Shown: piece after piece, positions 14,028-33,089 of the stretch
Numbering within the stretch: position 1 is the first letter of the stretch
Layout: every line of letters starts with the position of its first letter
Assembly (NCBI GenBank): GCA_049325335.1
Contig: JBMOMC010000002.1
Location: 64,001 to 128,000 of the forward strand
Length of the DNA: 64,000 bases
From: Nitrospirota bacterium
GTDB lineage: Bacteria; Nitrospirota; Nitrospiria; 2-01-FULL-66-17
Direction: 5' to 3'
Notes under the pieces: model-generated
What the model was told of the DNA's origin: nothing
The model's input: the letters and a program-made list of their open reading frames with translations, nothing else
Database searches by the model: none
Position numbers and translations under genes: made by a program

Positions 14028-14234
14028 CGCCACTCCGTCGAAATGTTCGATCGAAATACCCAATTTGCAACTTCCGGACCGAGTCGGGATGACTCGGGAT
14101 TGGCCGAGCGGTGAAATGTTACCGAGGGAATGACGCGTTGAAGCTTGAACCAACCATCAAGGGTAGACAACTTTGTCGCCCGTCCGTCATTTCTGTCGGT
14201 CTCACGGCGATCGCCGTGAGAAGGGTGAGGCCGT

Positions 14235-15197
14235 TTACACCGGGAAGAACACGAACGGGTAGGTGACGATGATGACGCCGTCATACAGGTGGGGGAACTT
14301 CCACATCTTGATCCGGCTGGCGAGGGCTTGTTCCAGCGGGGCGTGATCCATGGTGGTGGAAATGATGCGCGTTTCAATGACCTTGCCGGTGGCGTCGATG
14401 GAAAACTCCACGGAAATGGTGCCCTTGAGCGTGGGGTTGGCACGGAGTTCTTTGTTGTAGAGGTAGATCAGGCCGTTCTTGTACTGCTCCACCACGCGCG
14501 CGATGGCGTCGTAATCAATCGACGCGCCTGTCCCCGACCCACCGCCTCTCAGCCGGACGCCCACGCCGTCGCCGAGACGGTGCCCGCCGCTGCCCGCTCC
14601 GCCGGCGCCGGTCTCGGTTGGAATCCGGGCCAAGGCGACTTGTTCGCCGTGGGCGAGTCTGGTGCGGTCGCCGCTGCCCAGGGATTTGGATTTGGCCACG
14701 GTCTTGTCCACCAATGCGGTATCGTGCGACAGGGGTTTAGTAGCAATGGCGCGGGTGCTCTTGGCGGTCGGGGCCGTGATCAGATCCGACGATGACAAGG
14801 CCTGGGTCAGGCGATCGCTCTCGATGATGTCGCTGAGTCCGCCTTTTTCTTCTTCTTCGATCAACGAGGCGAGCAGGCCGCTCTGCCGCACGATCTCCCG
14901 TGTTTGCTGGGCCGAGGGTTTTGGCGGGGCCGCCGGCTTCTTGTCGGCTTTGGGTTTGTCGGCGTCCTTCTTTTCCGGGGCGACGTCCGCCACGTTAGGT
15001 TTCTCCGGTGTGGCTACGATGGGCGGAGGTTCCAAGATCAGCTTCGCCACACGTTCGGGCAGATCCTGAATGTCGGGGTGCTCGGGAACAGGCATGCGGA
15101 TGATGGTCACGAGCGCCGCGGCCAACAAATAGAAGCCCAGCGAGACACGCAGGGTCTTCTTAAACAGCTCATCGTCTGAATGCGGTACGATGATCAT
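14235..15197 (-). CDS. TonB-like protein with AgmX/PglI C-terminal domain (GltG-like)
   Basis: N-terminal TM, Pro/Lys-rich linker, C-terminal LYNKELRANPTLKG..V.F.I...G.V...YPFVF. Confidence 0.85.
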   Translation of the reverse strand: MIIVPHSDDELFKKTLRVSLGFYLLAAALVTIIRMPVPEHPDIQDLPERVAKLILEPPPIVATPEKPNVADVAPEKKDADKPKADKKPAAPPKPSAQQTREIVRQSGLLASLIEEEEKGGLSDIIESDRLTQALSSSDLITAPTAKSTRAIATKPLSHDTALVDKTVAKSKSLGSGDRTRLAHGEQVALARIPTETGAGGAGSGGHRLGDGVGVRLRGGGSGTGASIDYDAIARVVEQYKNGLIYLYNKELRANPTLKGTISVEFSIDATGKVIETRIISTTMDHAPLEQALASRIKMWKFPHLYDGVIIVTYPFVFFPV

Positions 15198-15209
15198 CTA
15201 CGGTCTCCG

Positions 15210-15707
15210 TTAACCGATCTGCTCTTTTTGCACCACCGCGAGCGCGATGTGCGGAAACTCCGCCTGCGCGCAGGTGGCCATGAGTTTTTTGAGCAACTGA
15301 AACGGAATCTTGCGATCCCCCATAATCGTGATGTTCCCGGTGAACGTGACCGACGCGGTCTTTTGCGCCATGGCGCGGGTGCGGTCTCCCAACCGAGTCA
15401 GCTCCTGCGTGAGCGGTCCCAGGATAGTGTCCGGTTGCGCGATGGCTTCCGCCACGCCCATGACGCGTTTCCCGTCCACGAAGATCTCCCTGTCCGTCAC
15501 CAACAAGGTGACGGTCGGACGCGGGGCCTTTTCCGCGGTGGAGGCTGGCAGCTTGAGGCCTTCGGAGTCTGGTAACGCTTCTTCACCCGCAAGATGAACC
15601 AGGAGAAACAATAGCAGGATGGTGAAAATGTCCATCAAGCTGATGAGGCTCAACGACACGACGGCGTCGCGGCCTCGTCGATTATGGAGCCGGTCGCGAA
15701 ACTTCAT
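15210..15707 (-). CDS. exbD: ExbD/TolR family protein (AglS-like)
   Basis: LISLMDIFTILLLFLL TM segment with conserved Asp; GDRKIPF...LMAT. Confidence 0.88.
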   Translation of the reverse strand: MKFRDRLHNRRGRDAVVSLSLISLMDIFTILLLFLLVHLAGEEALPDSEGLKLPASTAEKAPRPTVTLLVTDREIFVDGKRVMGVAEAIAQPDTILGPLTQELTRLGDRTRAMAQKTASVTFTGNITIMGDRKIPFQLLKKLMATCAQAEFPHIALAVVQKEQIG

Positions 15708-16192
15708 ACGCGTTTAACCTCGCCGATTGAAATGTCCGGAAACAACTCCTGGGACGGGCCGGCCTTCCGGCACACGTCCATGACTTCGACCAAGGACTCG
15801 TACGCCACGTCGGGCTCGCTCAATAGGATGACCGACTTTTCCTGCGGGTAGGAGGTTTTTACCCGTTGCAACAGCGCAGTCAGCCCAGCGAGGTCGTACG
15901 CGCCGTTTTGCAGCGCGAGCCGATTCGGAGCCAACCCGCTGCCTTGTACGCTGATTCCGTCCCGGTGCAAGGCCACGATCAAGCTGAACGGTTCTTGCGC
16001 GGGCGGCGCGGCGGCGTGCGCGCTCGATGCCGTGGGCAGGTTGAGCTCCAACACCGCGAGCCGGGAAAACACCACGCCCGTCAGCAAGAACGGGATCAAC
16101 ACCACCATGAGATTCATGAATGGCGTGATGTTCAGCGAGTTGTCGCCTTGCCCGAACCGGCGAGCCCGACGTAGCCGCACGCTATTTCGCAT
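15704..16192 (-). CDS. exbD: ExbD/TolR family protein (Asn in place of TM Asp)
   Basis: LNITPFMNLMVVLIPFLL; VAYESLVEVMD. Confidence 0.88.
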   Translation of the reverse strand: MRNSVRLRRARRFGQGDNSLNITPFMNLMVVLIPFLLTGVVFSRLAVLELNLPTASSAHAAAPPAQEPFSLIVALHRDGISVQGSGLAPNRLALQNGAYDLAGLTALLQRVKTSYPQEKSVILLSEPDVAYESLVEVMDVCRKAGPSQELFPDISIGEVKRV

Positions 16193-16904
16193 GCACGGTC
16201 CCTTTCATCCCCACCGCTCGGCGCGGCTGGAGCATTTCCGAGCCGTTGGAGTACGCGTCCGCCGCGTCACTCTTCGCCATCTGGCCGGCCAGATTCACCA
16301 GCCTCAGCGCGTACCCTTCCACGGTGTCGATAACCCGGTTGGTGCGGCTCTGGAGAAATCCGTGCACCAACATGAGCGGCACCGCCACGATCAATCCGAA
16401 CGCGGTGGTGTTCATGGCTACTGAAATCCCCTTAGCCAACAACGTGGCCTTCTGGGCGGGGTCGGCCATCGACACCGCGGTAAAGGCCTGGATCAACCCT
16501 ACGATGGTGCCGAGGAGTCCGAGCAGGGTGGCGACGTTGGCCAGATTCGGCAGGTAGTTGAGCCGTGCCTCCAGCCGCGGAATGACCTGCATCATGGCCT
16601 CGTCCACGCCGCCTTGGGCGTCTTCCCGGGTGAACGAGCCTTTCATGCCGCGAATTCCCCCCGCGAGGACCTGGTGGAGCGGGCGGTTGGACTGCGTGCA
16701 GTGACGCGCTGCTTCGTCCATGCGCCGGCCGTGGATGCTCGGCGCAATTTGCCCCCACAGCCGTTCGCCGTTGGTCCCGGCCCGCGCGATCACCACGATG
16801 CGTTCCACCACGATCGCGGTTGACACAGCCAGCACCAGGAGGATCGGATACATGAAGAATCCTCCGGCCTGGAAAAAGTTGATATATGTTGCCACGCTGG
16901 TCAT
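16182..16904 (-). CDS. MotA/TolQ/ExbB proton channel subunit (AglR-like)
   Basis: GGFFMYPI, ATLLGLLGTIVGLIQAF, GISVAMNTTAFGL. Confidence 0.92.
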   Translation of the reverse strand: MTSVATYINFFQAGGFFMYPILLVLAVSTAIVVERIVVIARAGTNGERLWGQIAPSIHGRRMDEAARHCTQSNRPLHQVLAGGIRGMKGSFTREDAQGGVDEAMMQVIPRLEARLNYLPNLANVATLLGLLGTIVGLIQAFTAVSMADPAQKATLLAKGISVAMNTTAFGLIVAVPLMLVHGFLQSRTNRVIDTVEGYALRLVNLAGQMAKSDAADAYSNGSEMLQPRRAVGMKGTVHAK

Positions 16905-17236
16905 TGGTTCCCTCCTCCTGTTCCGGATATCGGTGTGCGCAAAAGCTGGCGTTGAAAACGCGCTCGATCTACGGGTTCGAGTAGTTCTTGTTCAAAACTC
17001 CGGCGAAGCGGCATGTCGTTGTCCACCGCCGACAGCGTATTCTTCCACGGGACCACGTACACCACGTGCGGTTGCTCCAAGGTGCCCTGGATCTCGGTGC
17101 CTTCCATCAGAAAGCGTTCGACGTTCGCGTCCGTCCCGACGGACTCGGCTCCGGCGGGCGCGGTGTCCGCCGCTGAGGCCAGTCCGACAGCGAGCAGCAC
17201 GGTTGCGGGTATGAGCGACCCGATCAACCGCCTCAT
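16901..17236 (-). CDS. Small secreted protein (GltF-like)
   Basis: Signal peptide, EGTEIQGTLEQPHVVYVVPW motif, position between the TPR lipoprotein and the motor genes. Confidence 0.65.
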   Translation of the reverse strand: MRRLIGSLIPATVLLAVGLASAADTAPAGAESVGTDANVERFLMEGTEIQGTLEQPHVVYVVPWKNTLSAVDNDMPLRRSFEQELLEPVDRARFQRQLLRTPISGTGGGNQ

Positions 17237-17874
17237 GGCGTCTCCTTGACGCGGTCCACCCGCTTCTGGAGCGCGGCGATCCAGATCGCCACCTCCTCTT
17301 GCCCCTCTCCGCCCGCAGCCAGATAGGTCTGATAGTGCTCGATCGCCTTGTCGGGTTCATTGAGATACAGATCGTAGAGCACTGCCAGGTTGTAGTCGGC
17401 GTCTCGGAAATCCGGCGCGGCATTGAGCGCGCGGCGGTATGCGTCTTCGGCCTGGCGAAACTTGCCTTGCTCGCGCAATGCGAGCCCCATGTTGTAGTAG
17501 GCTTCGGGGTATTGGGGTTGGATCTTGATCGCCTGTTGGTACGCGGCTACGGCTTCCGGCAGCAGTCCCATGCGCTTGTAGACCACGCCGAGATTGTTGT
17601 GGAACACGCTCACGTGCGGGTAGCTGGTCCGCAAGTTTTCGAACGCGGCCCTGGCTTCCTTGAGCTTTCCGTTCTCAATCAGGCTCGTACCTTTTTGGAA
17701 GCGTAGGAGAACCTGGTCAAGTTTTTGTGCCTCAGCGGCACGCGATTCGTCGCTTCGCGCGGTGGTCTGAGTCGGGATCGGCGCGGGCGGCGGCAACATC
17801 GCGCGGGTGCAAGCCGTCAGCGCCGCGACAAGGACGAGCAACAGACGCATGAATTTCTGGGGACGGGTACTCAT
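17233..17874 (-). CDS. TPR lipoprotein (GltE/AglT-like)
   Basis: LTAC lipobox; TPRs NNLGVVY, YYNMG, YNLAVLYDLY. Confidence 0.85.
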   Translation of the reverse strand: MSTRPQKFMRLLLVLVAALTACTRAMLPPPAPIPTQTTARSDESRAAEAQKLDQVLLRFQKGTSLIENGKLKEARAAFENLRTSYPHVSVFHNNLGVVYKRMGLLPEAVAAYQQAIKIQPQYPEAYYNMGLALREQGKFRQAEDAYRRALNAAPDFRDADYNLAVLYDLYLNEPDKAIEHYQTYLAAGGEGQEEVAIWIAALQKRVDRVKETP

Positions 17875-20696
17875 CGTTCAGCCGCCAAGAGCCTGTCAAT
17901 GATTGACGAGAGCGGTTTAGCCGTCAACGTCTCGACATCGATATTCGAAGTGAGTCGCTCGGTTCGCTCTGGACGTTTGTAGAGCGCGGGCCGCAATTCC
18001 GCCAGCCGGTCGTAACTCTTCTTGACCCACTCGTTGTAGGCTCCCGGTTGGCTCGACGCCCGCTGCACGTTGCTGGCATACGCCTGAATCGCCTTTTCTT
18101 CAAACGGGAACGCTTTCTCTTCCAGTTGGAACTTGTACTCGTCCACCTGTTCCGGGGTGAGTTTCTTCGGGAGTTCGGCTTCGAGCAGCGCGGTCTTGAA
18201 GTGTTCGAACACCTCGCCCAGGCGGTACGCGGACGTGGCAACCACCTCCTGGTATCGCGTCTCCGCGGCCCGTGTGTAGAGCGTGATCGTCTTGTCCAAC
18301 GCCTGAGTCTTATTTTTGAGGTTCTTTTTGAACGGCTCCCTCAGGGCGATTTTTTTAAGCGACCGGAACGACTCCTCGGCCTGGTGGAACACGGCTTGCG
18401 CCGCGAACTGGGTGCCGGGTGCCTGTTGTTCCACCTCCGTGAACAGCTTGAGGGCCTCCATGGTCTTCCCCTGGCGCTGCCGGATCATGGCCATCTTCCA
18501 CCAACCTTCAGGCGCATCCGGGTGTTTGGGGAACCGCTCGGTGAATTGCGCGAAGACCGCGTAGCTCTTGTCCCATTGGGAGGCCTTTTCGTAATCGACA
18601 CCGGCGGTCCAGAGAATCTGTGGCGCCTGCGCGTGGTGTTGGGGTAACGTGGCCGCGGCTTCGAAAGCCTCGGCGGCTTCGCCCCACTGTTCACCTTGTT
18701 CGTAAATCAAGGCGGTTTGGAGCGCGGCTTTTGCGCCGAGGTCGGACGTGGGGTCGCGCTGGACCAGTTGCTGGTAGGCGGCGATCGCCTCGCGCGGCTG
18801 CTTGAGCGTTTCGTACAGACTCGCCGCCTCGAACAACGCGTCGGCCGCCAAGGGGCTCTCCGGGGCTTCGCGCGAGATGGCGGCAAACGTCTTGGCCGCG
18901 TCGCTGAGCCGATTGGCCTTCTTGTGCTGCTCTCCCTGCTTGTACATGGCCGCGGCCAACAGATCGTTCATCTCGCGCTGCTGGGCCTTGTCCGCTGTCG
19001 GGAGGAGCGACAGGGTCAGCGCGTACGCCGCGCGAGCCTCGTCGAAACGGCCTTGCCGCATATAGGAGTGGGCGATCAACTTCTGCGCGGTGGCGGTGCC
19101 CGTGAAATTGGGATACCGGGACAAGACCTGCCCCAACATCTCGCGCGCCTCGGCATCGCGTTGCTGGTCGAACAGGATCTCGCCGGACTTGAGCAAGACC
19201 GTGGGCGTCCGGGCATCCTTCGGGAACTGATCCGCGAACCGTTTCGTCAACGCGACGAATCGCTCGTGGCCCTTCTTGTCCTGAAGTTTTTCCGCGGCCA
19301 CGATGGCGGAGTACGCGGGTTCTTTGTCCGCCGCGACTCCGGGATAGCTGTAGGCCACGGCTTCGTACGCCGCGGCCGCCTGCGCATACTCCTGCAACGC
19401 CATCAGGGATTCGGCGTACAGCAGATGGACTTCCCGCGTGTCCTTTTCCTCAGGGAACTCCGCGAGGAACTGGCGATACCATCCGACTGCTTCCCGATAC
19501 TGCTCGGCCTGTTTGCTCTCCCGCGCAGCGGCATGCGCGGACACCCCGAGCCGGTACAGACTGTCTTTGACCAAGGGGCGCGAGCGGGCTCGACCGGCCT
19601 CGTCGGTGGCCTTGTACCAGACGCTGGTGCTCAGGTACCCGTTCACGAGTGCGATTCTGGCGTCACGCGCGGCTTCGGGATCCCTCTCCTTCTCGTACGC
19701 CTCGATGACATACGACGCGAAGATGGGCGCCATGTCGTGCATGGGATGCTGTTGTACGAACGTCCGGTAGGTCGCAATCGCCTGCTGCCGGTTCCCCTCA
19801 CCCAGATATTGGTTCCCCATCATGAGGTAGAGATCTTTCTCGTAGAGCGCGATCCCGTGTTGTTTGAAATAGTCGGCCATGGGTTGCGGCCCGCCCAACC
19901 CCCGGAATGAAATAGCCACGTACGTCAGCGCTTCCCACACGAGGGACCCGGAGTCGGCGGCCGTGGCCGGTTGTCCGGCGGTCTTCTTGTCCACGAGGTA
20001 CAAGAACTGATCGACCGCGTGCGGGTATGCGCGGAGATTGAAGTAGGTCCACCCGAGTTTGTACCGGGCCCGGTCTTGAAGGACCGGATCGTCGAGCCCA
20101 ATCGTCTGCTCATAGGCGTCAGCCGCCTGCTCGAATCGACGGCCGTCAAAGTCGGATTCGCCGATACGGAAATATGCTTCCTGGAGGTGGGGACTGGTCG
20201 GGTATTCCGCGACCAACTTACTGAGCAACGGCTGGGCCAGGTCCCGACGCCCGGTCTCCGAGTAGGCACGGGCCAGACCGTACAGCACGTCGTCCTGCGC
20301 ATGAAATGTCGGATCGGTTTCGAGCAACGTCCGGTAGGTCGTGATCGCGTCGTCGTAATTGACCAGCGGCGGGGGGCCTTGTGGGTCCTTCTCATACGCC
20401 TCCATCGCCGAGAGAAATTGCTGGTGCGCGCGTTCAAGATACAGATCCCCGAGCCGTTTGAGTGCCTCGGATCGCAGGACGGGGTCCACGGTTCCGTAAT
20501 CCTTGAGAAAGCCTTCATACCCTGTGATCACGTCGGCTTTGCGAACCACGGGCAACGGCGCGCTCGAAGCCGCGTTTACGGCCTCCGAGTCCACGCGCAA
20601 CACGCCGTGATCCTTCGCGCTTGCGCAGGCCGTCAGCAGGCATGTGAGGCCGGCGAGAGACCACGTGGTCGCGGTGTGAAAAACACGGTGTTTCAT
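17871..20696 (-). CDS. Large TPR lipoprotein (GltD/AgmU-like)
   Basis: LTAC lipobox, many TPRs, C-terminal LEEKAFPFEEKAI...WVKKSYDRLAEL. ATGA overlap with the upstream stop. Confidence 0.85.
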   Translation of the reverse strand: MKHRVFHTATTWSLAGLTCLLTACASAKDHGVLRVDSEAVNAASSAPLPVVRKADVITGYEGFLKDYGTVDPVLRSEALKRLGDLYLERAHQQFLSAMEAYEKDPQGPPPLVNYDDAITTYRTLLETDPTFHAQDDVLYGLARAYSETGRRDLAQPLLSKLVAEYPTSPHLQEAYFRIGESDFDGRRFEQAADAYEQTIGLDDPVLQDRARYKLGWTYFNLRAYPHAVDQFLYLVDKKTAGQPATAADSGSLVWEALTYVAISFRGLGGPQPMADYFKQHGIALYEKDLYLMMGNQYLGEGNRQQAIATYRTFVQQHPMHDMAPIFASYVIEAYEKERDPEAARDARIALVNGYLSTSVWYKATDEAGRARSRPLVKDSLYRLGVSAHAAARESKQAEQYREAVGWYRQFLAEFPEEKDTREVHLLYAESLMALQEYAQAAAAYEAVAYSYPGVAADKEPAYSAIVAAEKLQDKKGHERFVALTKRFADQFPKDARTPTVLLKSGEILFDQQRDAEAREMLGQVLSRYPNFTGTATAQKLIAHSYMRQGRFDEARAAYALTLSLLPTADKAQQREMNDLLAAAMYKQGEQHKKANRLSDAAKTFAAISREAPESPLAADALFEAASLYETLKQPREAIAAYQQLVQRDPTSDLGAKAALQTALIYEQGEQWGEAAEAFEAAATLPQHHAQAPQILWTAGVDYEKASQWDKSYAVFAQFTERFPKHPDAPEGWWKMAMIRQRQGKTMEALKLFTEVEQQAPGTQFAAQAVFHQAEESFRSLKKIALREPFKKNLKNKTQALDKTITLYTRAAETRYQEVVATSAYRLGEVFEHFKTALLEAELPKKLTPEQVDEYKFQLEEKAFPFEEKAIQAYASNVQRASSQPGAYNEWVKKSYDRLAELRPALYKRPERTERLTSNIDVETLTAKPLSSIIDRLLAAER

Positions 20697-22621
20697 TGGC
20701 TCGCCATATCCCACAGACGAATTTGGTTGAGCCGCGCCGCGGCGGCCATGGTTTCGATCCGCCCGTGGCGTTGGTCCACGGCTTTGACCAACAGGGCTTG
20801 CAGCGGCGGGAGGAGTTCGGCCCGCGCCGCGGTTAATCGGCGTTGGTGCGCAACCAAATCGCGTCTGATGTCACGGATGTCGCTGCGGAACGTGCCGAGT
20901 CGGTTTTCAATGCCCGCAATGGATTCCACCAACTTCCGTTGATCGCGATCCGCCTGCTCAAGGTCCTCGTGCAATCGGTTTAACGCACGTTGAAGGTCGT
21001 CGCGTCGTCCCGGGACGTCGGTGGCAATGGTCCATACACGCTCGCCATAGAGCACATCGAGCCAGCGATCGGTCGTTTGCCACTGCGCCCGAAGGTCGTG
21101 GAGCCGGTCACGCACGGCAGGTGTTCCGTCGTCCATCCGTCGGATGGATTCTCCGACCGCACGGCTCTTCCGCCGAGCGTCTTCCAGCTCGTCGAGCGCG
21201 GGGCGCTCAGCGCCCGATGCCCAGTTCCGCGCGGTCTCGTGCCGGACAGCCTGCTCGATCGCGGTTTGCAACACAGCCTCTCGCTGCGTGAGCGGGGCCA
21301 CGGGGCTTTCATCGAGAAAGCCTTGCACAATGGGCACGCGCTCGCGAAAAATCGCTTGTCGATGCTCGAGCATCACGTCGAAGACGGCCGTGTCCTCGAG
21401 TTTTCGGGCCAGGTAGTGCTCAAGGGCCGCGAGTTCGCCGTATTGTTTGACCCAGTATCGGAGTCCGTCGTCTTCCAGGATCGGAGCGAGGGGACTCCGC
21501 ATCACTGCGTGGAAGTCCGTAAACAGCGCGTCCAATTGATCGCGATCTCGGATCAGGGATTTGATCGCAAGAAGGTTCTGCTGTGTCCGCTGGTAGGTGT
21601 CCAGGGCCGTGACATACGATTCGAGCGCCTTGGCGTGTTGTCCCAGGCGGTCGTAGCAATGGCCGATCGTGGTGAGGGCTTCCAGCGCATAAGGATGGTC
21701 GGGGGCCGCGCGTACGAGCGCTAAAAACGCGGCAAGCGACTCGTTGTACCGCTTGCGATACAAATGAGCCCAACCTAAGCCGAACGTCGCGTCGGGGTAG
21801 AACCGGCTGCTCGAAGGCACGGAGGCCAAGGTCGGGACCGCGTTGTCGTACCACCCGGTCTCGGTGAACAACAATCCCAATGTCACTCGGCTCTTCTCGG
21901 CAAGGGCTTGGCGTTCCGCGTCGTCCTCGGGGGTGAACGCGCCCGCGCCTTCGAGCAGGCGGATCGCGGCCGACACGTCGGCCAGTTGCATCCGGGATTT
22001 GGCCGACGCCAGCGCGGCGAACGGGCGGTACGCGCTGGAAGTCGGAACCGTCGCGAACGCGCGCAGCGATTCGTCGAATTGCCCCAGCGCGTAATGGCTC
22101 ATTCCGGCGAAGTAGGCGGCTTGGTCAAGCGATGCGAATGTCGGATCGCGATCAAGTCGCTTGTACGTGGACACCGCAGCCTCGTACAAGGATCGCGAGT
22201 ATTGGAGCCGTTCGATCAGCAGCAACACCTGGTTACGGTCGTTTCCCGGTGGGAATGTGGCAACGAGCTGATCAAAGATGGTTCTGGCGGACCGGTGAAG
22301 GCCCCATGCCAGATAGAGGCTGCCCCGAAGCAGGCGGGTCTCGTTGAGCAGGCTGGGCTCGTTCTGAACCCCCTTTTCCATCAGCTTCAGTCGAGTCGCG
22401 GACGTCAGGTAGTCCTCCAGAAAGAAGTGGTAGTAGGCTTCTTTCTTAAGCGAGGCCACGGTGGCGGGGGATACGGGGGAGACCGGCCATGCCTCGGCCG
22501 TGGTCGCTCCGACCTGGAGGGTGTCGGAAGCCGCAGCAAGGGGCGTGGTGCCATCCCCGGCAAAGGCCGGGAACGCCCACGCGCCGAGACTCAGGACAAG
22601 GATGTTAATGCCACGCTTCAT
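20693..22621 (-). CDS. Secreted TPR/coiled-coil protein (GltC-like)
   Basis: Signal peptide, TPRs (FGLGWAH, GHCYDRLG), helical C-terminus. Confidence 0.75.
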   Translation of the reverse strand: MKRGINILVLSLGAWAFPAFAGDGTTPLAAASDTLQVGATTAEAWPVSPVSPATVASLKKEAYYHFFLEDYLTSATRLKLMEKGVQNEPSLLNETRLLRGSLYLAWGLHRSARTIFDQLVATFPPGNDRNQVLLLIERLQYSRSLYEAAVSTYKRLDRDPTFASLDQAAYFAGMSHYALGQFDESLRAFATVPTSSAYRPFAALASAKSRMQLADVSAAIRLLEGAGAFTPEDDAERQALAEKSRVTLGLLFTETGWYDNAVPTLASVPSSSRFYPDATFGLGWAHLYRKRYNESLAAFLALVRAAPDHPYALEALTTIGHCYDRLGQHAKALESYVTALDTYQRTQQNLLAIKSLIRDRDQLDALFTDFHAVMRSPLAPILEDDGLRYWVKQYGELAALEHYLARKLEDTAVFDVMLEHRQAIFRERVPIVQGFLDESPVAPLTQREAVLQTAIEQAVRHETARNWASGAERPALDELEDARRKSRAVGESIRRMDDGTPAVRDRLHDLRAQWQTTDRWLDVLYGERVWTIATDVPGRRDDLQRALNRLHEDLEQADRDQRKLVESIAGIENRLGTFRSDIRDIRRDLVAHQRRLTAARAELLPPLQALLVKAVDQRHGRIETMAAAARLNQIRLWDMASQ

Positions 22622-23153
22622 ACCCGAACTCGGGTTGTTTCTTGGCGTCGTCGTCGCGAATGACCAACTTTAAGAAAGCCGCGCCTTTCTCCTTGGCGAG
22701 GGGGATGTTCTCCGCTCGTTTGTAGTCCTGTCCTTGCGGACCTTTGCCCGTAAACACCGCGGCGATTTGATGGTCGCCTGACTTCACGTTACCCATATAC
22801 AGCCGCTGAATCCCGCCCTTTTTGAGCGCGGTGACTTCGCGCTCGGTATACAGGTGCGTGGTCACCATGGTGTCGTCGAGCACCAATTTCACGGAGTCTA
22901 AGACGAAGTAATTCCCGCCCTCGACGCTCAGGAAAATCACCAACGAGGAGTCCTCCGGATACAACAGATCTTCCTGGAGTCGAAAGAGCCGCGTGTTGAG
23001 ATCGAGCACGTCGTCTTTTAATCGCTGGATCTTCACGTCCAATGCCTCGATGTCGCGTTCAGGATTGGGAGGTTCCTCCGCCCGCGTGGGGAACCCCGTC
23101 GTGAAGACGAACGAAAGACACCAGAATCCGACGAGTGCGTGAAATGGTTTCAT
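22605..23153 (-). CDS. Conserved secreted hypothetical protein of Glt-core/DUF3570 clusters
   Basis: Signal peptide, short coiled coil, then HLYTEREV.AL..GG.QRLY.GN beta domain. Overlaps both neighbours. Confidence 0.75.
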   Translation of the reverse strand: MKPFHALVGFWCLSFVFTTGFPTRAEEPPNPERDIEALDVKIQRLKDDVLDLNTRLFRLQEDLLYPEDSSLVIFLSVEGGNYFVLDSVKLVLDDTMVTTHLYTEREVTALKKGGIQRLYMGNVKSGDHQIAAVFTGKGPQGQDYKRAENIPLAKEKGAAFLKLVIRDDDAKKQPEFGYEAWH

Positions 23154-24196
23154 CAGGGTTCCTTCCCGTGTTCCATAAGTTTTGCCCCGAGGCCGAGTCC
23201 CGCCAGCCCCGAGGACAGGTGCATGTCGCCGTTTCGGTCGATGATGATCGCCTCCACGTCGTCCAGTTGTTCGACCAGCGCCAGGCCTTGTTCCGGGCCC
23301 AGCACGAATACGGTTGTCGACAACGCGTCGCTGGTCATCGCGTCCGTCGCCAAAATGGTGGCGCTGCGAGATTTCTTCGCGGGATATCCGGTGGTCGTGT
23401 CGAGAATATGGTGGTAACGCACGCCGTCTTTGACGAAGAATCGTTCGTAGTCTCCGGACGTGGAAACAGCCTGGTCTTCGAGCGGCAACACCGCGAGAAT
23501 GCCGTCGGCCTTGTCCGGATCCCGAAGCCCGATTCGCCACAAATCGTCGCCGTTTGTGCCCCGGATCAGCGTGTCACCGCCCGCCATGACCATGGCGTTG
23601 TGGACTCCGTGTGCGTTGAGCACGGCCATGGCCCGGTCCATGGCGTACCCTTTGCCGATCCCGCCGAGGCCGATCTCCATCTCACGCGCAGGGAGAAACA
23701 CCGTGGAGTGGTCGTCGTCGACGCGGACCTTCCGATAATCCACAAAGGGGAGCTGGGCCTTCACGGCGGCGGGGTCGGGGATCACGCCCGCGCGAAAGTT
23801 CCAAAGTTTTCCGACCGACGCGAAGGAAATGTCGAACGCGCCGTCGGAGAGTCGGGAGAAAAACAGCGAGCGTTGAATCACCTGCAACAATTCGCGACTC
23901 ACCGCAACCGGCGCCACCCCGGCCTGTTGATTGATCCGGGACAGTTCGGTCTCCGGCAGAAAATTGCTCATGAGCCGTTCCAGACGGGAAACCTCGTCGA
24001 ACGCGGCGTTGACCGCGCGCCGCAGTTGTTCGCGATCGTTACCCACGGCTTTCACGATCACCTGGGTTCCCATCAACGCGCGCTCTTCGGACACGAGTAC
24101 GGGTCGGGAAGGCGGCGTGACGGCCTGAACCGGCGCCACCGCTGCGCCGGCCAGCAGTACGTTAGTAAGTAAAGCCAACGCTCGTGTGTAGGACAT
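23153..24196 (-). CDS. apbE: FAD:protein FMN transferase
   Basis: MGT, GAFDIS, LGGIGKGYA, STSGDYER, YHHILD..TG, DALST. Confidence 0.93.
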   Translation of the reverse strand: MSYTRALALLTNVLLAGAAVAPVQAVTPPSRPVLVSEERALMGTQVIVKAVGNDREQLRRAVNAAFDEVSRLERLMSNFLPETELSRINQQAGVAPVAVSRELLQVIQRSLFFSRLSDGAFDISFASVGKLWNFRAGVIPDPAAVKAQLPFVDYRKVRVDDDHSTVFLPAREMEIGLGGIGKGYAMDRAMAVLNAHGVHNAMVMAGGDTLIRGTNGDDLWRIGLRDPDKADGILAVLPLEDQAVSTSGDYERFFVKDGVRYHHILDTTTGYPAKKSRSATILATDAMTSDALSTTVFVLGPEQGLALVEQLDDVEAIIIDRNGDMHLSSGLAGLGLGAKLMEHGKEP

Positions 24197-25298
24197 GGGC
24201 TCTCTGCGAGTACAGTGCGCCGGTGCGCGGGTCCGTAAAGTTGTCGTAGTCGTACATCAACAATGCGTAGCTGAACAGGACCGACATGTTTTCCAGCCCG
24301 TGCCACTTGAACCCTTGGGGTTTGTATTGAAGCGATCCGCCGATCCAGTGGTCGGAGAAGCGTGATAACTCCTTGTCCCGGGCCTTGTAGATCTGGGTGG
24401 CCGGGACCCGGTCCCCGTAAAAACTGGCCTCGCCCTGACGGTAATATCGATAAAACACGCCGCCGAGCCAATCGGCGCGTATGTACCGCTGATATTCCAC
24501 CTTGCCGGTATGGGACCTGACCTCAAAGGTGTCCTGGTAGTACCGATAATCGATCTGGATGGCGCTGCGCCGCCCGATCGACACGTTGTCCGCTGATCCG
24601 GGATCAAACCCATAACTGGTTCGCAGCGCCCACGCGTGCCCGGTCCGTGATTCAGGATACCGTTCAGGAGCAAACGCCTCGCTGTCGAGGATCGCGCTGC
24701 GGTACGGATTGTTGAGAAAACCGGAGTCAGCCGTGTTTTCATAGTTGATCTGCCCCAACCAACGAGGGGTCAATGACTGACTCAGCCCGACCGCATAAAT
24801 CGTTCGGTTGGCGTGTTCCTGCCCGAACGCGGGATCGCCGTTTTTGCCGATCTCATCCCAGGAGCGAGCAAGCCGGAAAGTGAGCGTGGCGTTCTTCTCG
24901 AAGAGGTCGTGCGCCATGGCCACGGCGAACGTGTTTGAGGTGTAGTCGGACTCGTGGCTCCGCGTGTAGTTGATTCCGGTGAGGATGTCCTCGTGCAGGA
25001 CGTCGGCGCCCAATGAATATTCGGTCCGCTGTTCGCGGTACGGGCTGGCCTGGGTCACCACGTCGATCGATGCCGAGCTGACCAGATCCACCCTGGCGCC
25101 GGCCTTGACCGACAGGCGGTTGAGCAATTCCTTCTTGACGATCATGGCCGGTCCTTGAACCGTAATACCGCCGCCGCTGTAGAGGTTGTAGCCGATCGCC
25201 ATATCGTCTTGGGGAGGCTCCACGGCCTCCGCGGTACCGAGCAGCCCGGCCAGCAGCGCCGCACAACCGCCGGCTTGCATGCACGCGCGCGCGTTCAC
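24162..25298 (-). CDS. DUF3570 outer-membrane beta-barrel protein
   Basis: VDLVSSASIDVVTQAS, ESDY.S, GFLNNPYR, ERYPESR, YRYY.D; alternating beta strands ending in Tyr. Confidence 0.85.
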   Translation of the reverse strand: MNARACMQAGGCAALLAGLLGTAEAVEPPQDDMAIGYNLYSGGGITVQGPAMIVKKELLNRLSVKAGARVDLVSSASIDVVTQASPYREQRTEYSLGADVLHEDILTGINYTRSHESDYTSNTFAVAMAHDLFEKNATLTFRLARSWDEIGKNGDPAFGQEHANRTIYAVGLSQSLTPRWLGQINYENTADSGFLNNPYRSAILDSEAFAPERYPESRTGHAWALRTSYGFDPGSADNVSIGRRSAIQIDYRYYQDTFEVRSHTGKVEYQRYIRADWLGGVFYRYYRQGEASFYGDRVPATQIYKARDKELSRFSDHWIGGSLQYKPQGFKWHGLENMSVLFSYALLMYDYDNFTDPRTGALYSQRAHVLHTSVGFTY

Positions 25299-25522
25299 CG
25301 GCAGCCGCAGCCCCCGCCGCTTCCGCTAAACCCGCCGCGCGATCCCTCCAACACTTCTTCGATGTGCACGTGCCATTCCGCCTGGAGGACGTTGGCGTCG
25401 AACTGCATGATTTCGTCCGCGAGGTACTCTCGCTGCCACGGCTTCACCGCGGAGCAACCCGCGAGCAGGGCGCTGATCATCACGGTCGCAAGCACGAGGG
25501 CCTTCGCGGTCACCGGCGTCAC
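25295..25522 (-). CDS. DUF4266 lipoprotein
   Basis: LAGC lipobox, VKPWQREYLAD.IM, C-terminal GGGCGC. Confidence 0.88.
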   Translation of the reverse strand: MTPVTAKALVLATVMISALLAGCSAVKPWQREYLADEIMQFDANVLQAEWHVHIEEVLEGSRGGFSGSGGGCGCR

Positions 25523-26043
25523 TCCTTGAGCAATGCGCGGATTTCGGATTCGTACCGATCCGGGTCGGCGGGCCCAAACCCCCAGTGCACGTGACGAAGG
25601 GTCCCGTCCTTGGCCACGACGAACGTGGTCGGCATGGAGCGAATCTGGTACAGGTCCGATGTGCTCCCGGCCGGATCGAGCAACACGGGGAACGACAGGC
25701 CGAGCGCGGCGCTCAGGTGCGAGGCCTGGGAGGACACCTTGTCGATATTGACGCCGAGGACTTCCAACCCGAGGTTCTGATACCGACGATACAGGACGTT
25801 GAAATACGGGAGTTCCTCTTTACACGGCGTGCACCACGTGGCCCAAAAATTCACGAGCACCACCCGTCCGCGCAGTTCGCTCAACTTCACGTTGCCGCCG
25901 GTCGAGCGCTTCAGCGTGAAGTCGGGCGCCTTCTTTCCCGCGCGGGGGATCTCGCTTGAAACGGGTGGCGCCAACAGCAGCACACTCAACAACGAGGCGG
26001 CCAACAACGAGACAATGCGAATCGTACGCATCGGGTTCCTCAA
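25519..26043 (-). CDS. TlpA-family thioredoxin/disulfide reductase
   Basis: APDFTL, VNFWATWCTPC, MPTT. Confidence 0.92.
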   Translation of the reverse strand: MRNPMRTIRIVSLLAASLLSVLLLAPPVSSEIPRAGKKAPDFTLKRSTGGNVKLSELRGRVVLVNFWATWCTPCKEELPYFNVLYRRYQNLGLEVLGVNIDKVSSQASHLSAALGLSFPVLLDPAGSTSDLYQIRSMPTTFVVAKDGTLRHVHWGFGPADPDRYESEIRALLKE

Positions 26044-26690
26044 AAGAATAGGACGAGGGCGAGGGTGCCCTCGATGTTGTACGTGAGTTTGTTCACGCCC
26101 GTGACATCGGTTTCGAACATATGAAACCGCAGGTCGGGCCTCACGTTGAACCAGTCCGTGACAAAGATTTTGAACCCGGTCCCCGCATTGGCGCTGAAGT
26201 GGCTGCGGTCATCCATGGTGACCTGGCCTAAGCCGCCCGCCAGATAGATGGCGGAGTTGATGGTGCGTTTGCGCGTGAGAAAGAGTTGGCCCGGGAAGAG
26301 ATCGTAAGAGACGCCGACGTTCCAGTATGAGAGATCGTCATTGACCAATAACGAGCGGCCCGTCAGCCGGCGAAACGCGGATTGATCGACTTGCGAGATC
26401 GCGTAACTCGCCTCGAACGCGACATCTTCGTTGACGTGATAGGTGAGTCGCAGTCCGAACACGGAGGATGCGCCGAAGCCGTCGGGCGCGTAGATGCCGG
26501 CGTACGGACCCAACTCAAACCGTTCGGTGTCCAGGCGCGCTTCTTTGAGCCGCCGATCGTCGCTCGGCGGCTTGATGACGGGTTCCTCCTCGATCGGCAG
26601 GCCCTGACCGAATGCCGATGATCCGAGATCCACGCCCGCGCCGATTACCAGACCCATCCCCACCGCCATCCATGTCCGCCACGTCATCAT
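26040..26690 (-). CDS. Outer-membrane beta-barrel protein (GltA/B/H-like)
   Basis: Signal peptide, DTERFELG, amphipathic strands, terminal Phe. Confidence 0.8.
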   Translation of the reverse strand: MMTWRTWMAVGMGLVIGAGVDLGSSAFGQGLPIEEEPVIKPPSDDRRLKEARLDTERFELGPYAGIYAPDGFGASSVFGLRLTYHVNEDVAFEASYAISQVDQSAFRRLTGRSLLVNDDLSYWNVGVSYDLFPGQLFLTRKRTINSAIYLAGGLGQVTMDDRSHFSANAGTGFKIFVTDWFNVRPDLRFHMFETDVTGVNKLTYNIEGTLALVLFF

Positions 26691-26695
26691 GGTCG

Positions 26696-27463
26696 CTAGA
26701 AGTGGAACACCAATCCCGCGCTGTACTCTTGGAACTCCCTGGTGCGTTCGGTGGTCATGAACAGGGTGAAATGTCGGACGTCCACGCGCCCCTCCAGGTT
26801 CCGGAACAGCGGAACGATGACTCCGACGCCGGCATGCATGGTGGGAAACGTGCCGGAGTCGGCGTTGACCAACAGGGTGGTGGGCGTGACGTGCGCGACG
26901 CCCCCGCCCATGGCGGCGTTGACCGCCAGCCACGACGCGCGCCACGGGGTTACCACGATCCCTCCGTGGTAGAGTTGCGTGCTGCCCAAGTCCCCGGCCC
27001 CAAAGCCTCCGGTCGCTTCGAACGCGAGATGGTCGGTGAGCGTGTGCGTGAACCGCACGCAGAGGACCGGATCACCCGCGAACGTGCCGGCGCTCCACCC
27101 CAATGCGGTACGGCCCGCGATGAAGTCGTCATAGATTCGCTCGGTCCAACGCTTGCGGTATCCGGATGCCATCAAGGTTTTTTCGATCTCGCGTCGATGG
27201 GCCCATCCCACGGTTCCGTTGCGGAGACGGATTTCGTACCAGTCCACGCGTTGTTTGAGCAGCCGGATGGTTTCGCCTTTCTCCGCGATATAAAAGACCG
27301 GGTAGCTGCTTCCCGGTCCGGTATGGATTTCCAGAAACGGTTCGACCACCGCGGCTTCCCGGAAGACGGGCTCCTTTCCGAACGCGACGGCGGGGCCGAC
27401 CATCAGCCCCACCGCCATGATGCAGATCCCGAGTCCCCATCCCGCAATCACCCGCGCCCTCAA
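26696..27463 (-). CDS. SH3b domain plus beta-barrel protein
   Basis: PFLEIHTGPG..YPVFY...GE...W......G..GW SH3b pattern; barrel ending in Phe. TTG start overlaps the upstream TGA. Confidence 0.75.
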   Translation of the reverse strand: MRARVIAGWGLGICIMAVGLMVGPAVAFGKEPVFREAAVVEPFLEIHTGPGSSYPVFYIAEKGETIRLLKQRVDWYEIRLRNGTVGWAHRREIEKTLMASGYRKRWTERIYDDFIAGRTALGWSAGTFAGDPVLCVRFTHTLTDHLAFEATGGFGAGDLGSTQLYHGGIVVTPWRASWLAVNAAMGGGVAHVTPTTLLVNADSGTFPTMHAGVGVIVPLFRNLEGRVDVRHFTLFMTTERTREFQEYSAGLVFHF

Positions 27464-27927
27464 AGCGGGTTCTGGATCCAGCCCAAGATCGCGACATAAT
27501 CCGCGTCCGTCGCGCTCATGAAGATGTCTCCCCCCAGGTGCTGAATCCCGCCCGCCGCGAGCGCCAATGGTTTGGTGAGCAGTTTGCTGGTCGTCGGGTT
27601 GGCGAGGTTGGCCATGCCCGCGGCCGAGTCGCTGTTGGCGAGCAACTGATCCGCGGTGCAGGAGTTTCCCGAACAGTCGAACACCCGAAAACTCCCGCCG
27701 GGTCCTCCCGAATTCGGGTTGTCCTTGTCCCGGTAGTGGCACCCGCCCTGCGAGCAACTGCGCGCGTCGAGGATCGATTGAATCGCCGTGGCAAATACCG
27801 ACTGATCCAATTGACCGAGCGCCTCCTGCTCGCCGGGTTCCACGTGCCCGCAACCCGTTCCGAACCACGCCGTCATCATCGCGCACGCAAGTATACCCCT
27901 CGTGTGTGATCGGCCCGCCATCCTCAC
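27460..27927 (-). CDS. c-type cytochrome-like lipoprotein with CX4CH motif
   Basis: GTGC lipobox, CSQGGCH. Similar to the C-terminal heme domain of the upstream gene. Confidence 0.7.
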   Translation of the reverse strand: MRMAGRSHTRGILACAMMTAWFGTGCGHVEPGEQEALGQLDQSVFATAIQSILDARSCSQGGCHYRDKDNPNSGGPGGSFRVFDCSGNSCTADQLLANSDSAAGMANLANPTTSKLLTKPLALAAGGIQHLGGDIFMSATDADYVAILGWIQNPL

Positions 27928-30356
27928 TGCGCCGCGATGATCCAGTTGAGGATGGTGGCGTAATCCGCGTCCGTGGCGGCCAACGGCGCGGGATTCACCG
28001 GCTGGCCGTTGCGGACCATCGGCACCACGCCGGTGCCTTTGACGAACAGCAGGCTATTGGCCGGGTTGGTCACGTTCACGCGGGCCGCGGTCGCCCCAAA
28101 GTCGCCTTCGGGGTCTCCGGTCAGCACGAAATTGCTGTCGCCGCCCGCCACGTGACAACTCGCGCACCGTCGTTGCAAGATGGGCTGAATCGTGGTTTCG
28201 AACACGGTCTCGTCCAGATTCGCCCGGCCCGGATTGGTGATGACGTCGTAGTTGCTGAACTGCGCGCCCAGATCGATCCACTCCACGATGGTGCGTTTAT
28301 CTTGGGCCGACAACATCCCGGCGTGGTTATTGGCGTCGGTGGCCGGCAAGGCCACGGACGAACGGAGTTCCTCGCCGAAGATGCGCTCGACCAGATGGCT
28401 TTGGCGTGATTCCCCGGGCTGCACGAGGTCGGATCCGTCCGACTCCATTTCGCCGCCGAGCAGGGTGGTGTACGAGATCGGGAACCCGAGGCCCGACACA
28501 TCGCCGCTCAAATCAAGATTCCCGCTCGGGGTGGTTGACGAGTGGCACGACACGCATTCCGCGTCGAAGATCGTCTGCACGTGGTCCGTATAGTCAATGA
28601 CCGCGATGGTGGGCGGCGTGTACACGGACGGCGCGCGGTTGAGCGCGATCGAATCCGCGGCTGCGCGTTGCGGCTGACCGCGACGCGGCGAATGGCAGCC
28701 GTTGCAGGTCCGGCTTTCGCCGGGCCGCACCTGCAGCCAGTTTTCCTTCACCTTAAACGACCGTCCCTCATTATCGACCACGTGCAAGGTCAGGGACGTG
28801 TCGGCCGGGACCGTGACCCGGAACGAGCCGTCCGCTTCGACCGGGGCATATCCCAGGATTTTTTGGCGCTCGAAGTCGGTGAGCCCCATGTCTTCGACCC
28901 CCACCCCGGGCTGGCTCGGCACCGCCTGGACCACTCGAACCTGTCTGACCACTTGCAGCGACGCGTCGCCGACCAGCGCCGCGAAGTCGATGTTGCCGCT
29001 GCCGTCGCGCGGAATGGTCACCCCCAAGACGCTGTTCGACAACGCGCGGTTGGCTTCGGAGTCGTACACGCTTGTTGCCGCGAGCACGCCGGTTGTCCCG
29101 GTCCGGTTCGCAGGTGTACTGGGCTTGGTCGAGGGGATATCGCTGGCGGCCACGGCCATCAACGGCACCGGCTCCACGTAGACCTGCTGGGTTCCGGCGT
29201 TCGGCACTTTGATGGGTTTGAGCGTTCCGTCCGCGTTGTTGAGCATCCAGATGCCATACCGAGCCTCTTCCCCCTCGGTCACCACCCCGGTATCCTCGTC
29301 TTCCATATCTTCGACCACCTCACCGGTCGAGTAGGAGACCAGGTAGCGGTTGGTCCCGTCCGGCACCGGGTACACGTTGTGATACCGGCCGACCTCGGAG
29401 GCTTCCCGGCCGGTGGGAATCACTTGGCTTCCGGTCAACTGGAGCGACGAGGTGTTGGGGTTGTCGGCTTCCGCCGCCACGTCGACCACGCCGATGGCGC
29501 CGCCTTCAAACGTGCCGGTCAATGGCATCATGGTGCCGACCATTTGCCCATCCGGGAGCTCCCGGATGTCCAAGAACGAGTTCACCCCGGAATGGGATCC
29601 GTATTTGACGAACATGTCGGTTCCGTCCGGTCCCATCACGAACATGGGGAACTTGTTTTCTCTGCCCAAGTGTTCCCAACGACTGAACGCAATGTTCCCG
29701 TCGCGCAGGACAATCGGGTTGCGGTCGTGGCTTTGATTAAACGAAATCTGGACCACCTCGCCGCCGTCGCACGACGGTTGGGACGACGACACCGGTTGCG
29801 TGCGATCCAGCATGTGCAGCACGGTGGATCGCCGGCGTTCGTATTCGTCGAGGTGCCCGGGTCGATCCGAGGAGAACACGATTCGGCCGTCGGGCAGGTA
29901 CTGCGGATCCACTTCGTTTGACGAACCGCACGTGAGCTGGACCGGATCGCTCACCCGCGTCCCGTCCGCGTTCACGTCCACTTCGTACAGATGCCACCGG
30001 TCCGCGCTGCTGGTGCGCATCGCGAACACCACCCGAAACTGCTCGTCGGTGGTCTGGGCGAACACCTCCGGATCGCTCACATCGCCGACCCCGTTCGTGA
30101 CATCACCCGTGAGGTTTCGTAGGGTGCCGGATGGGGTGGCGGGCACCAGAGTCATCAGATCGCCGCCTGGTTCGAAGCGAATGGGATCCAATGGGTCACC
30201 AATCGCGTCGAGGCTCCGCGCCGCAAAGACGATCCCAGGGATGTCTTCCTGCGCGACCGGGCTCTCTCCGGTTCCGCAGGACCACGCGGCAACCCCGCCG
30301 ACCAGGGACAACGCGCCCCAACGGATCCACTTCATCGTTTGTGCGTGCAGTCGCAT
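27924..30356 (-). CDS. HzsA-like (hydrazine synthase alpha middle domain) triheme c lipoprotein with beta-propeller
   Basis: GAGGA RBS, AWSC lipobox, PD40-like repeats (DPQYLPDGRIVFSS), ILGYAPVEADGS..V.VPA...GESRTCNGCH, CVSCH, CASCH. Confidence 0.85.
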   Translation of the reverse strand: MRLHAQTMKWIRWGALSLVGGVAAWSCGTGESPVAQEDIPGIVFAARSLDAIGDPLDPIRFEPGGDLMTLVPATPSGTLRNLTGDVTNGVGDVSDPEVFAQTTDEQFRVVFAMRTSSADRWHLYEVDVNADGTRVSDPVQLTCGSSNEVDPQYLPDGRIVFSSDRPGHLDEYERRRSTVLHMLDRTQPVSSSQPSCDGGEVVQISFNQSHDRNPIVLRDGNIAFSRWEHLGRENKFPMFVMGPDGTDMFVKYGSHSGVNSFLDIRELPDGQMVGTMMPLTGTFEGGAIGVVDVAAEADNPNTSSLQLTGSQVIPTGREASEVGRYHNVYPVPDGTNRYLVSYSTGEVVEDMEDEDTGVVTEGEEARYGIWMLNNADGTLKPIKVPNAGTQQVYVEPVPLMAVAASDIPSTKPSTPANRTGTTGVLAATSVYDSEANRALSNSVLGVTIPRDGSGNIDFAALVGDASLQVVRQVRVVQAVPSQPGVGVEDMGLTDFERQKILGYAPVEADGSFRVTVPADTSLTLHVVDNEGRSFKVKENWLQVRPGESRTCNGCHSPRRGQPQRAAADSIALNRAPSVYTPPTIAVIDYTDHVQTIFDAECVSCHSSTTPSGNLDLSGDVSGLGFPISYTTLLGGEMESDGSDLVQPGESRQSHLVERIFGEELRSSVALPATDANNHAGMLSAQDKRTIVEWIDLGAQFSNYDVITNPGRANLDETVFETTIQPILQRRCASCHVAGGDSNFVLTGDPEGDFGATAARVNVTNPANSLLFVKGTGVVPMVRNGQPVNPAPLAATDADYATILNWIIAAQ

Positions 30357-32946: not shown

Positions 32947-33089
32947 CGTGTCCTCCTGTGCCTGTTGTCCTTGGTGTGTGGCGTCGAAGCCGAGGGATGC
33001 TAGCCATGAGGACATGAGCTTGTCAAGCGGGCCCGCGCGACGCGTCGGGGAGTTGACAGGCGAGCGGAAGCTGGTATGTCCATACCATC

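Follow-up and report, generated by a model that had tools for sequence, protein, structure and literature searches.

The window analysed here is a 64,000-nucleotide stretch of a Nitrospirota genome (assembly GCA_049325335.1, contig JBMOMC010000002.1, positions 64,001 to 128,000). Between 30356 and 14235 its minus strand carries 17 open reading frames (ORFs), separated by intergenic distances of -35 to +12 bp (Table 1). From 5′ to 3′ these encode an HzsA-like lipoprotein, a C-x4-CH cytochrome, an SH3-domain protein with a barrel, a TIGR04565 barrel, TlpA, DUF4266, DUF3570, ApbE and a conserved secreted protein (gene X). There follow tetratricopeptide repeat (TPR) proteins in the positions of GltC, GltD and GltE, a small secreted protein, a MotA/ExbB protein, two ExbD proteins and a GltG-like protein. 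Hence a redox half is joined to a motor half, which is taken here to run from gene X to the GltG-like gene. A first-pass annotation had described 17 same-strand genes with overlapping or at most 12-bp junctions, and both this arrangement and the order were confirmed. Nearly all of its family labels were supported by Pfam or NCBIfam. The exception was 'GltF-like' for the small secreted protein, which derives from position and size: none of 35 family members (0/35) matches the CglF/GltF model NF033764, and the Atlas label is hypothetical.

A search of three genomes of the same genus (G108, G171, G231) showed all 17 genes in identical order, at 58-95% identity, in each of them, which argues against a chance arrangement. 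The GC content of the operon resembles that of its flanks. A scan for promoters and terminators stayed at chance level (4 found, 3.9 expected), with no convincing internal terminator; the gene overlaps suggest that the 17 genes may be co-transcribed.

Table 1. Genes of the operon, listed in the direction of transcription, with positions in the window.
Feature	Position	Strand	Basis or remark
HzsA-like lipoprotein, 810 residues, lipobox Cys27	27924..30356	-	Pfam/NCBIfam; AlphaFold2 model (AF2), pLDDT (predicted local distance difference test) 88; Foldseek; 95-row conservation
Lipoprotein cytochrome (C-x4-CH), 153 residues	27460..27921	-	Paralogous to third haem domain of the HzsA-like protein
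SH3 domain + OmpA-type beta-barrel, start codon uncertain	26696..27463	-	Pfam SH3_3, OMP_b-brl; weak TIGR04565
TIGR04565 outer-membrane barrel (over cut-off), conserved N-terminal periplasmic extension	26040..26690	-	Candidate GltA/GltB counterpart
TlpA/ResA-like thioredoxin, WCxxC	25519..26031	-	AhpC-TSA/ResA-like; CxxC cysteines in 35/36 rows
DUF4266 lipoprotein, Gly-rich tail ending CGC	25295..25522	-	Pfam DUF4266
DUF3570, modelled as an outer-membrane barrel of 16 strands, with two relaxed ApbE motifs	24162..25298	-	Pfam; model pLDDT 95
ApbE flavin transferase, conserved motifs intact	23153..24196	-	Pfam/NCBIfam
Gene X, conserved secreted protein, 182 residues	22605..23153	-	Immediately precedes gltC, or is fused to it, at loci examined
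GltC-position TPR/coiled-coil protein, 642 residues	20693..22621	-	Size and position as in Luciano tables
GltD-position TPR lipoprotein, 941 residues	17871..20696	-	Size and position as in Luciano tables
GltE-position TPR lipoprotein, 213 residues	17233..17874	-	gliding_GltE E 7e-12, below cut-off
Small secreted protein, position of Luciano's unnamed 'additional gene'	16901..17236	-	Position and size only
AglR-like MotA/TolQ/ExbB channel subunit	16182..16904	-	MotA_ExbB
First ExbD/TolR subunit, Asn28 at transmembrane Asp position	15704..16192	-	Asn in 20/31 rows
Second ExbD/TolR subunit, transmembrane Asp kept	15210..15707	-	Asp in 31/31 rows
GltG-like transducer, 320 residues, AgmX/PglI (TonB-C-like) domain	14235..15197	-	NF033768, 84 bits, cut-off 40

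The motor half

The last eight genes had been likened to the core of the Agl-Glt gliding machinery of Myxococcus, a likeness borne out by gene order, protein sizes and the AgmX domain. According to Luciano et al. (2011, PMC3169522), that core comprises gltC, gltD, gltE, gltG, aglR, aglQ, aglS and one unnamed gene; here and below, statements about published work refer to the accessible portions of the papers cited. The window shares the order gltC-gltD-gltE-(unnamed)-aglR-aglQ-aglS-gltG, similar protein sizes, two ExbD proteins and the AgmX/TonB-C domain. However, the published core is a standalone set of seven genes plus one, whereas the window adds a ninth gene, X, and an upstream module of outer-membrane clients. 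Moreover, the window contains a pair of small barrels, which Luciano et al. deemed a later addition, and Nitrospirota are not among the host lineages named in the accessible text of their study (Gammaproteobacteria, one betaproteobacterium, Geobacter and Fibrobacter). The same authors described the function of the core as unknown and doubted that it could power motility by itself. Wartel et al. (2013, PMC3858216) called it 'standalone' and suggested specialisation by cargo.

The GltG-like protein consists of a short N-terminal tail, one transmembrane helix within the first 35 residues, a Pro/Lys linker and the AgmX/PglI domain. Its best full-length model is gliding_GltG (E 1e-26), and it gave no FHA domain hit. 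A grouping with ordinary Tol-Pal or TonB systems was checked and not found: the motor proteins score far below the cut-offs of the TolQ, ExbB, TolR and ExbD equivalogs (TolQ 66 against a cut-off of 221, ExbB 43 against 206), and the 17 genes include no TolB-Pal, no TonB-dependent receptor and no inner-membrane transporter. The Asn in one of the two ExbD proteins would imply an asymmetric 5:2 motor in which a single subunit can be protonated. Gene X carries the database name 'AraC regulator', which was rejected because the protein is secreted and has no Pfam hit.

The flavin and thiol genes

The ApbE, DUF3570, DUF4266 and thioredoxin genes were recognised in the first-pass annotation as a published type of flavinylation cluster, correctly so, since all four genes were found and DUF4266 bears a CXC motif. 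Meheust et al. (2021, PMC8238504) described such clusters with or without DsbD; the window belongs to the class without an adjacent DsbD (316 clusters in that study). They also showed two flavinylated serines in one DUF3570 protein, recovered from the pellet. The window agrees with these clusters in its four genes, the CXC tail of DUF4266 and two Ser/Thr sites in DUF3570. It differs in that the motifs lack the canonical Gly and in that the published account, in its accessible text, mentions no barrel, HzsA-like cytochrome or motor. Moreover, the DUF3570 subfamily of the window groups apart from stand-alone clusters of the same phylum: in a DUF3570 tree, 10 stand-alone rows form one clade separate from the core-linked rows (support 0.996).

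The structural model of DUF3570 (110-row alignment, pLDDT 95) has 16 long strands, against 22 in the plugged receptors of ordinary TonB systems. The first begins around 9 residues past the mature N-terminus, and there is no room in the model for a plug domain or a TonB-box segment. Its top structural neighbours are the 16-strand export barrels PelB and PgaA (the best two), BcsC and CdiB, although these matches are generic (Z 20.6, 20.5 and 18.9; identity at most 13%). Two motifs, D71..S77 and D79..S85 (window ~25044-25088), lie in the loop that joins strands 3 and 4; barrel topology and the strand pattern predict that this loop faces outward. They follow the relaxed form D-x-x-[ST]-x-A-[ST]; the strict form with two [S/T]GA[S/T] is absent, the residues here being SSAS and TQAS. 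Conservation across the 110 rows is high (D71 in 97, A76 in 97, S/T77 in 102, D79 in 101, A84 in 94, S/T85 in 103). In one model substrate, a Gly-to-Ala change in the flavinylation motif only halves flavinylation (PMC12052999). Covalent flavin mononucleotide (FMN) on the window DUF3570 is likely: the Asp, Ala and acceptor positions are kept in 85-94% of rows, although only 4/110 rows have two canonical motifs.

Two DsbD_TM genes were found elsewhere in the host genome, one of them inside a second DUF3570 cluster that has no motor (G000:C2:205150-214300). This cluster contains ApbE, thioredoxin, DUF4266 and DUF3570 together with two haem-c proteins (cytochrome lipoproteins), an FG-GAP protein, a ResB-like gene and DsbD/CcdA, and is a classical DsbD-type cluster in the sense of Meheust et al.

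The haem lipoproteins

The HzsA-like lipoprotein (HZS_alpha match, E 8e-20) has three CxxCH motifs and consists of a beta-propeller, an HZS_alpha middle domain with CxxCH at 551-555, a bis-His haem domain (601-605 with His678) and an extra, third haem domain (731-735). Foldseek aligned its AF2 model to hydrazine synthase alpha (5c2v_A, E 1e-33, TM-score 0.61) over the whole HzsA fold. The window protein shares with hydrazine synthase alpha (5C2V) the propeller, the middle domain with haem alpha-I and the bis-His haem alpha-II. Both haem sites are kept, with the alpha-II distal His in 95/95 rows; clade I non-anammox HzsA homologues are reported without this His (PMC12758564, the source also of the residue roles given here). 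However, the position of Tyr591, the ligand of haem alpha-I, is occupied by Arg in 83/95 rows, Tyr not being among the four commonest residues. The window protein also differs from hydrazine synthase alpha in its third haem domain, in being a lipoprotein and in the absence of accompanying beta and gamma genes. It scores 104 with the hydrazine synthase alpha model against a cut-off of 800, and in the host genome (99% complete) the best match for the beta subunit reached 59 bits against a cut-off of 560, with no match for gamma. With Arg in place of the Tyr591 ligand, and with neither a beta nor a gamma subunit reaching its cut-off in the genome, this lipoprotein is no hydrazine synthase.

A hidden Markov model built on the third haem domain matches the 153-residue cytochrome (E ~1e-11), and both are homologous to the haem domains of a LamG lipoprotein encoded at other loci. 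Two architectures of the haem module can therefore be distinguished. In type A, a dihaem HzsA-like protein is accompanied by a trio of others: a monohaem protein, a LamG lipoprotein with two haems and a large protein of twin-arginine type. Type B is compact and pairs a trihaem HzsA-like protein with a small cytochrome (the window and loci L059, L070, L094 and L118). The window genome lacks the type A trio, which can be seen at L063:3965-9207 and L103:3143-8766. The monohaem protein of the trio has weak DUF1585 similarity, and its twin-arginine-type protein (~520 residues) has no Pfam or NCBIfam match.

MtrCAB porin-cytochrome conduits, in which a large barrel holds a decahaem wire, are likewise encoded with multihaem lipoproteins. 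The operon resembles them in pairing an outer-membrane barrel with such lipoproteins and differs in its 16 strands and its putative FMN and dithiol relay. No match to the MtrB/PioB barrel (PF11854) was found in the genome, and the operon proteins carry at most three CxxCH each.

The small barrels

The SH3 barrel and the TIGR04565 barrel are paralogous (hhalign probability 98%) and constitute a candidate GltA/GltB-like pair within the redox half. In an AlphaFold model of the M. xanthus machinery (PMC11761067), force passes from AglRQS to GltG, then to GltD/E/F, GltC and the N-terminal extensions of GltA/B, and the GltA/B barrels hold the propeller-containing lipoprotein CglB at the surface. The window resembles this platform in that a propeller lipoprotein is accompanied by two small barrels, paralogues of each other, of which one has a conserved N-terminal extension. 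As in the GltABHK-CglB platform and in Nfs, paired small barrels and a propeller lipoprotein are linked to a GltC-type TPR protein. The window lipoprotein, however, carries haems where CglB has a VWA adhesin domain, and the window GltG lacks FHA.

A covalent disulfide tether between client and motor, of the kind found in the type IX secretion system (T9SS; PMC12635249), was considered and rejected: in the alignments of gene X, GltC, the small secreted protein and the SH3 barrel, Cys exceeds 30% at no position. The TIGR04565 barrel has a single column above that level (31/88 rows), in its N-terminal region.

Linkage of the two halves across genomes

Metagenomes were scanned with an alignment of gene X, which returned 562 relatives; the best 80 were kept by similarity to gene X of the window. 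Of these loci 51 exceeded 5 kb, 40 of them with at least 3 kb of upstream sequence. ApbE, TlpA, DUF3570 or DUF4266 lies upstream of the core in 39/40, haem-module genes in 34/40, and one or other set in 40/40. An HzsA-like gene, often on the opposite strand, was found in 19 of the 22 loci with at least 9 kb upstream. DUF3570 itself appears in only 6/22, because the 10-kb flank stops short of its expected position in the divergent layout. The linkage persists across phyla, through inversion and rearrangement, and the two small barrels travel inside the redox half. Co-occurrence of the halves outside this genome, on which the earlier proposal of a single system depends, is thus wide (3/3 same-genus genomes and 40/40 informative metagenome loci).

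The same compact cluster is very probably present in Thioalkalivibrio sulfidiphilus HL-EbGr7, a cultured organism included in the original core study, judging by accession numbering: GltC is ACL71640, the trihaem HzsA-like protein is ACL71648, and the seven accessions between them equal the seven intervening genes of type B loci L059, L094 and L118. The named hosts include both a sulfur oxidiser and marine Gammaproteobacteria, a spread that does not point to a specialised lithotrophic role. No relative of gene X was found in viral contigs or plasmids, the latter giving only distant HzsA-like matches.

Within the phylum sample of 301 genomes, gene X is present in 33 and a DUF3570 match in 28 (25 over cut-off); a full-strength HzsA-like match is confined to the 4 operon-bearing genomes. 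A different arrangement prevails in one family of 64 genomes (f13), where an HzsA-like gene was found in 0/64. The 16 loci fetched from this family all have the core (16/16) and none has redox genes (0/16); upstream of the core, 14/16 have DUF11 repeat (adhesin-like) proteins and OmpA/barrel giants. At L154, L162, L166 and other loci of the family, DUF11/SdrD-repeat proteins of 1,500-3,200 residues and OmpA-domain/barrel proteins are encoded directly upstream of X-gltC. The sizes of the core proteins in this family match those of the Geobacter core in the tables of Luciano et al. A third client type accompanies a second, divergent core of the window genome (G000:C43:8300-18000, L171) and of a same-genus genome (G231:C7, L170), in which gene X is fused to gltC and a single lipoprotein of ~310 residues, without a Pfam hit, precedes the core.

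A tree of AglR and GltD was built from 54 loci (the window and fetched loci, with no myxobacterial sequence). Adhesin-type cores fall into a single clade with a long branch, which lies within the redox-linked cores (support 0.84-0.99), a position in which a long-branch artefact is possible. The window lineage branches deeply, indicating that its core is not a recent transfer.

Proposed reading: a motor with an interchangeable client

In the reading that we tentatively prefer, a motor driven by proton-motive force (PMF) would hold, load or move a client in the outer membrane that can be exchanged for another, in this operon a haem/FMN/dithiol redox complex at the surface. The proton-driven ExbB/ExbD/ExbD′ motor would pull on the GltG-like protein. 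From there the force would pass through a TPR shaft in the periplasm (GltD/E, the small protein, GltC and gene X) to an outer-membrane platform, which in this operon would be the pair of small OmpA-type barrels. The client would comprise the two haem-c lipoproteins and the 16-strand DUF3570 barrel, probably with ApbE-attached FMN on an outer loop, together with a periplasmic dithiol relay (TlpA and the CGC of DUF4266) fed in trans by DsbD/CcdA. It would reduce or oxidise something at the cell surface. The work of the motor would be mechanical (to retain, load, expose or reposition the surface complex) and not electron transfer.

The motor probably acts on complexes of surface proteins, given that relatives carry others in place of the redox set, and the occurrence of each half without the other argues for a modular motor with an interchangeable client over a dedicated redox machine. 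The barrel pair, the propeller lipoprotein and the client swapping make a mechanical motor acting on the upstream-encoded complex the simplest reading. The single trans-envelope PMF-redox machine of the first-pass annotation therefore stands in part: the halves do co-occur widely, but each is also found alone and the client is exchanged in 14/16 loci of the adhesin-type family.

Several observations weigh against a redox client handled by the motor. The canonical Gly is missing from the FMN motifs, with doubly canonical rows as rare as given above, and the haem lipoproteins may face the periplasm instead of the surface. No match over cut-off to the CglB, CglE or CglF models was found in the genome; we take CglE to be GltH and CglF to be GltF. 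The 80-locus sample favours the subtype of the window, and three of its loci (L086, L096, L129) retain only ApbE beside the core. In the adhesin-type family, gene X occurs in 28/64 genomes and DUF3570 in 4/64, with no genome having both. Stand-alone DUF3570 clusters are common: 17/20 fetched DUF3570 regions lack a core gene, some of them on short contigs. At one further locus (L107:5585-9058), DUF4266 lacks the CGC tail and DUF3570 lacks the motifs while both small barrels still lie beside the core; neither an HzsA-like nor an ApbE gene is nearby.

The dissociation of the halves in other genomes would also be expected if they were physically separate modules sharing an operon for regulation, the redox genes forming a periplasm-facing enzyme and maturation unit in which TlpA reduces apo-cytochrome CxxCH. 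This is an unlikely reading that nonetheless carries real weight, as ResA is the best NCBIfam match of TlpA and the motor-less second DUF3570 cluster combines cytochrome lipoproteins with a ResB-like gene and DsbD. It sits poorly with a linkage that persists across phyla and through inversions, with the presence inside the redox half of two small barrels expected to be the motor-side platform, and with the separate subfamilies formed by core-linked DUF3570s.

Energised reductive uptake, which the first-pass annotation had offered as an example of function, fits poorly because there is no TonB-dependent receptor and the DUF3570 barrel has no plug domain. In such a TonB-like scheme the motor would open DUF3570, the FMN loop would act as the gate and a metal or solute reduced at the surface would be imported. 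A motor of the ExbB/ExbD class with a TonB-C-like domain, the porin-sized DUF3570 barrel and the inclusion of an iron transporter in 25 DUF3570 clusters (PMC8238504) speak for it. Nevertheless, we regard it as unlikely: the DUF3570 model also leaves no TonB-box segment, no inner-membrane transporter is encoded among the 17 genes, and DUF3570 clusters without a motor and motors without DUF3570 both occur.

That the core energises the export of folded lipoproteins across the outer membrane (holo-cytochromes here, giant adhesins elsewhere) and was later co-opted for gliding is improbable. Every client type seen does include a large exported protein or lipoprotein gene, with barrels in 2/3 types; the top structural neighbours of DUF3570 are export barrels, and T9SS uses one energising mechanism for both export and gliding (PMC12635249). 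The fold matches are, however, generic, small barrels of this type would be unlikely to pass a folded protein, and the Glt barrels of M. xanthus hold on to CglB without secreting it, being dispensable for its arrival at the surface (PMC9946355).

That the operon encodes a machine for gliding or surface motility, in which the propeller lipoprotein would serve as adhesin, is very unlikely despite the homology to the Agl-Glt core and a propeller lipoprotein with a barrel pair as in the CglB/GltAB model (PMC11761067), given the missing FHA domain and very short cytoplasmic tail of the GltG-like protein, the lack of CglB, CglE and CglF matches over cut-off and the published doubt that the core could power motility by itself (PMC3169522). 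A hydrazine-synthase-like complex forming N-N bonds has next to no chance of being correct: the full-length HzsA fold, both haem sites and the alpha-II distal His are offset by the Arg at the Tyr591 position, the low alpha score, the missing gamma subunit and a beta match below cut-off.

Relation to published work and wider implications

Each half has already been published separately, the motor half without gene X. A literature search, which covered few subscription papers, found no paper joining the flavinylation cluster to the Agl-Glt core and none calling DUF3570 a barrel. The supplementary neighbour lists of PMC8238504 (five genes on each side of DUF3570), which lay outside that search, may hold TPR genes as raw rows. 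One preprint (10.1101/2023.06.07.544157) notes, in its accessible text, the DUF4266/DUF3570/TlpA neighbourhood only, and that of a later flavinylation preprint (10.1101/2024.03.13.584918) does not mention DUF3570.

Since 2011 the role of the core in bacteria that do not glide has awaited an explanation, as has that of the DUF3570 flavinylation cluster since 2021. The conserved linkage and the exchange of redox for adhesin clients turn both into one question: does the motor act on the upstream gene products? The operon thus offers a testable clue to the job of a proton-driven envelope motor. Should DUF3570 be a flavinylated barrel, it would add a new kind of electron path in the outer membrane. 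A broader generalisation is possible but doubtful. The Agl-Glt core may be a general proton-driven handler of outer-membrane surface complexes with swapped upstream clients, the commonest being a previously undescribed electron conduit in which a flavin-bearing DUF3570 barrel of 16 strands is wired to a periplasmic dithiol relay and to surface HzsA-family haem lipoproteins that the motor positions or moves. Myxobacterial gliding would then have arisen by replacement of the redox propeller lipoprotein with an adhesive one.

Neighbouring genes and other loci

At one locus of the adhesin-type family (L155:10839-18443), genes resembling cobalamin uptake or salvage and a TonB-dependent receptor were noted by eye upstream of the core, on the opposite strand. 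Two neighbours of the operon in the window were left outside the unit because they were not detected in distant loci. MATE transporter and YceI genes (30554-33015, minus strand) lie upstream on the operon strand beyond a 197-bp gap and are conserved within the genus. A chlorite-dismutase-domain gene (13458-14153, minus strand) lies just downstream and is present in 2/4 same-genus genomes.

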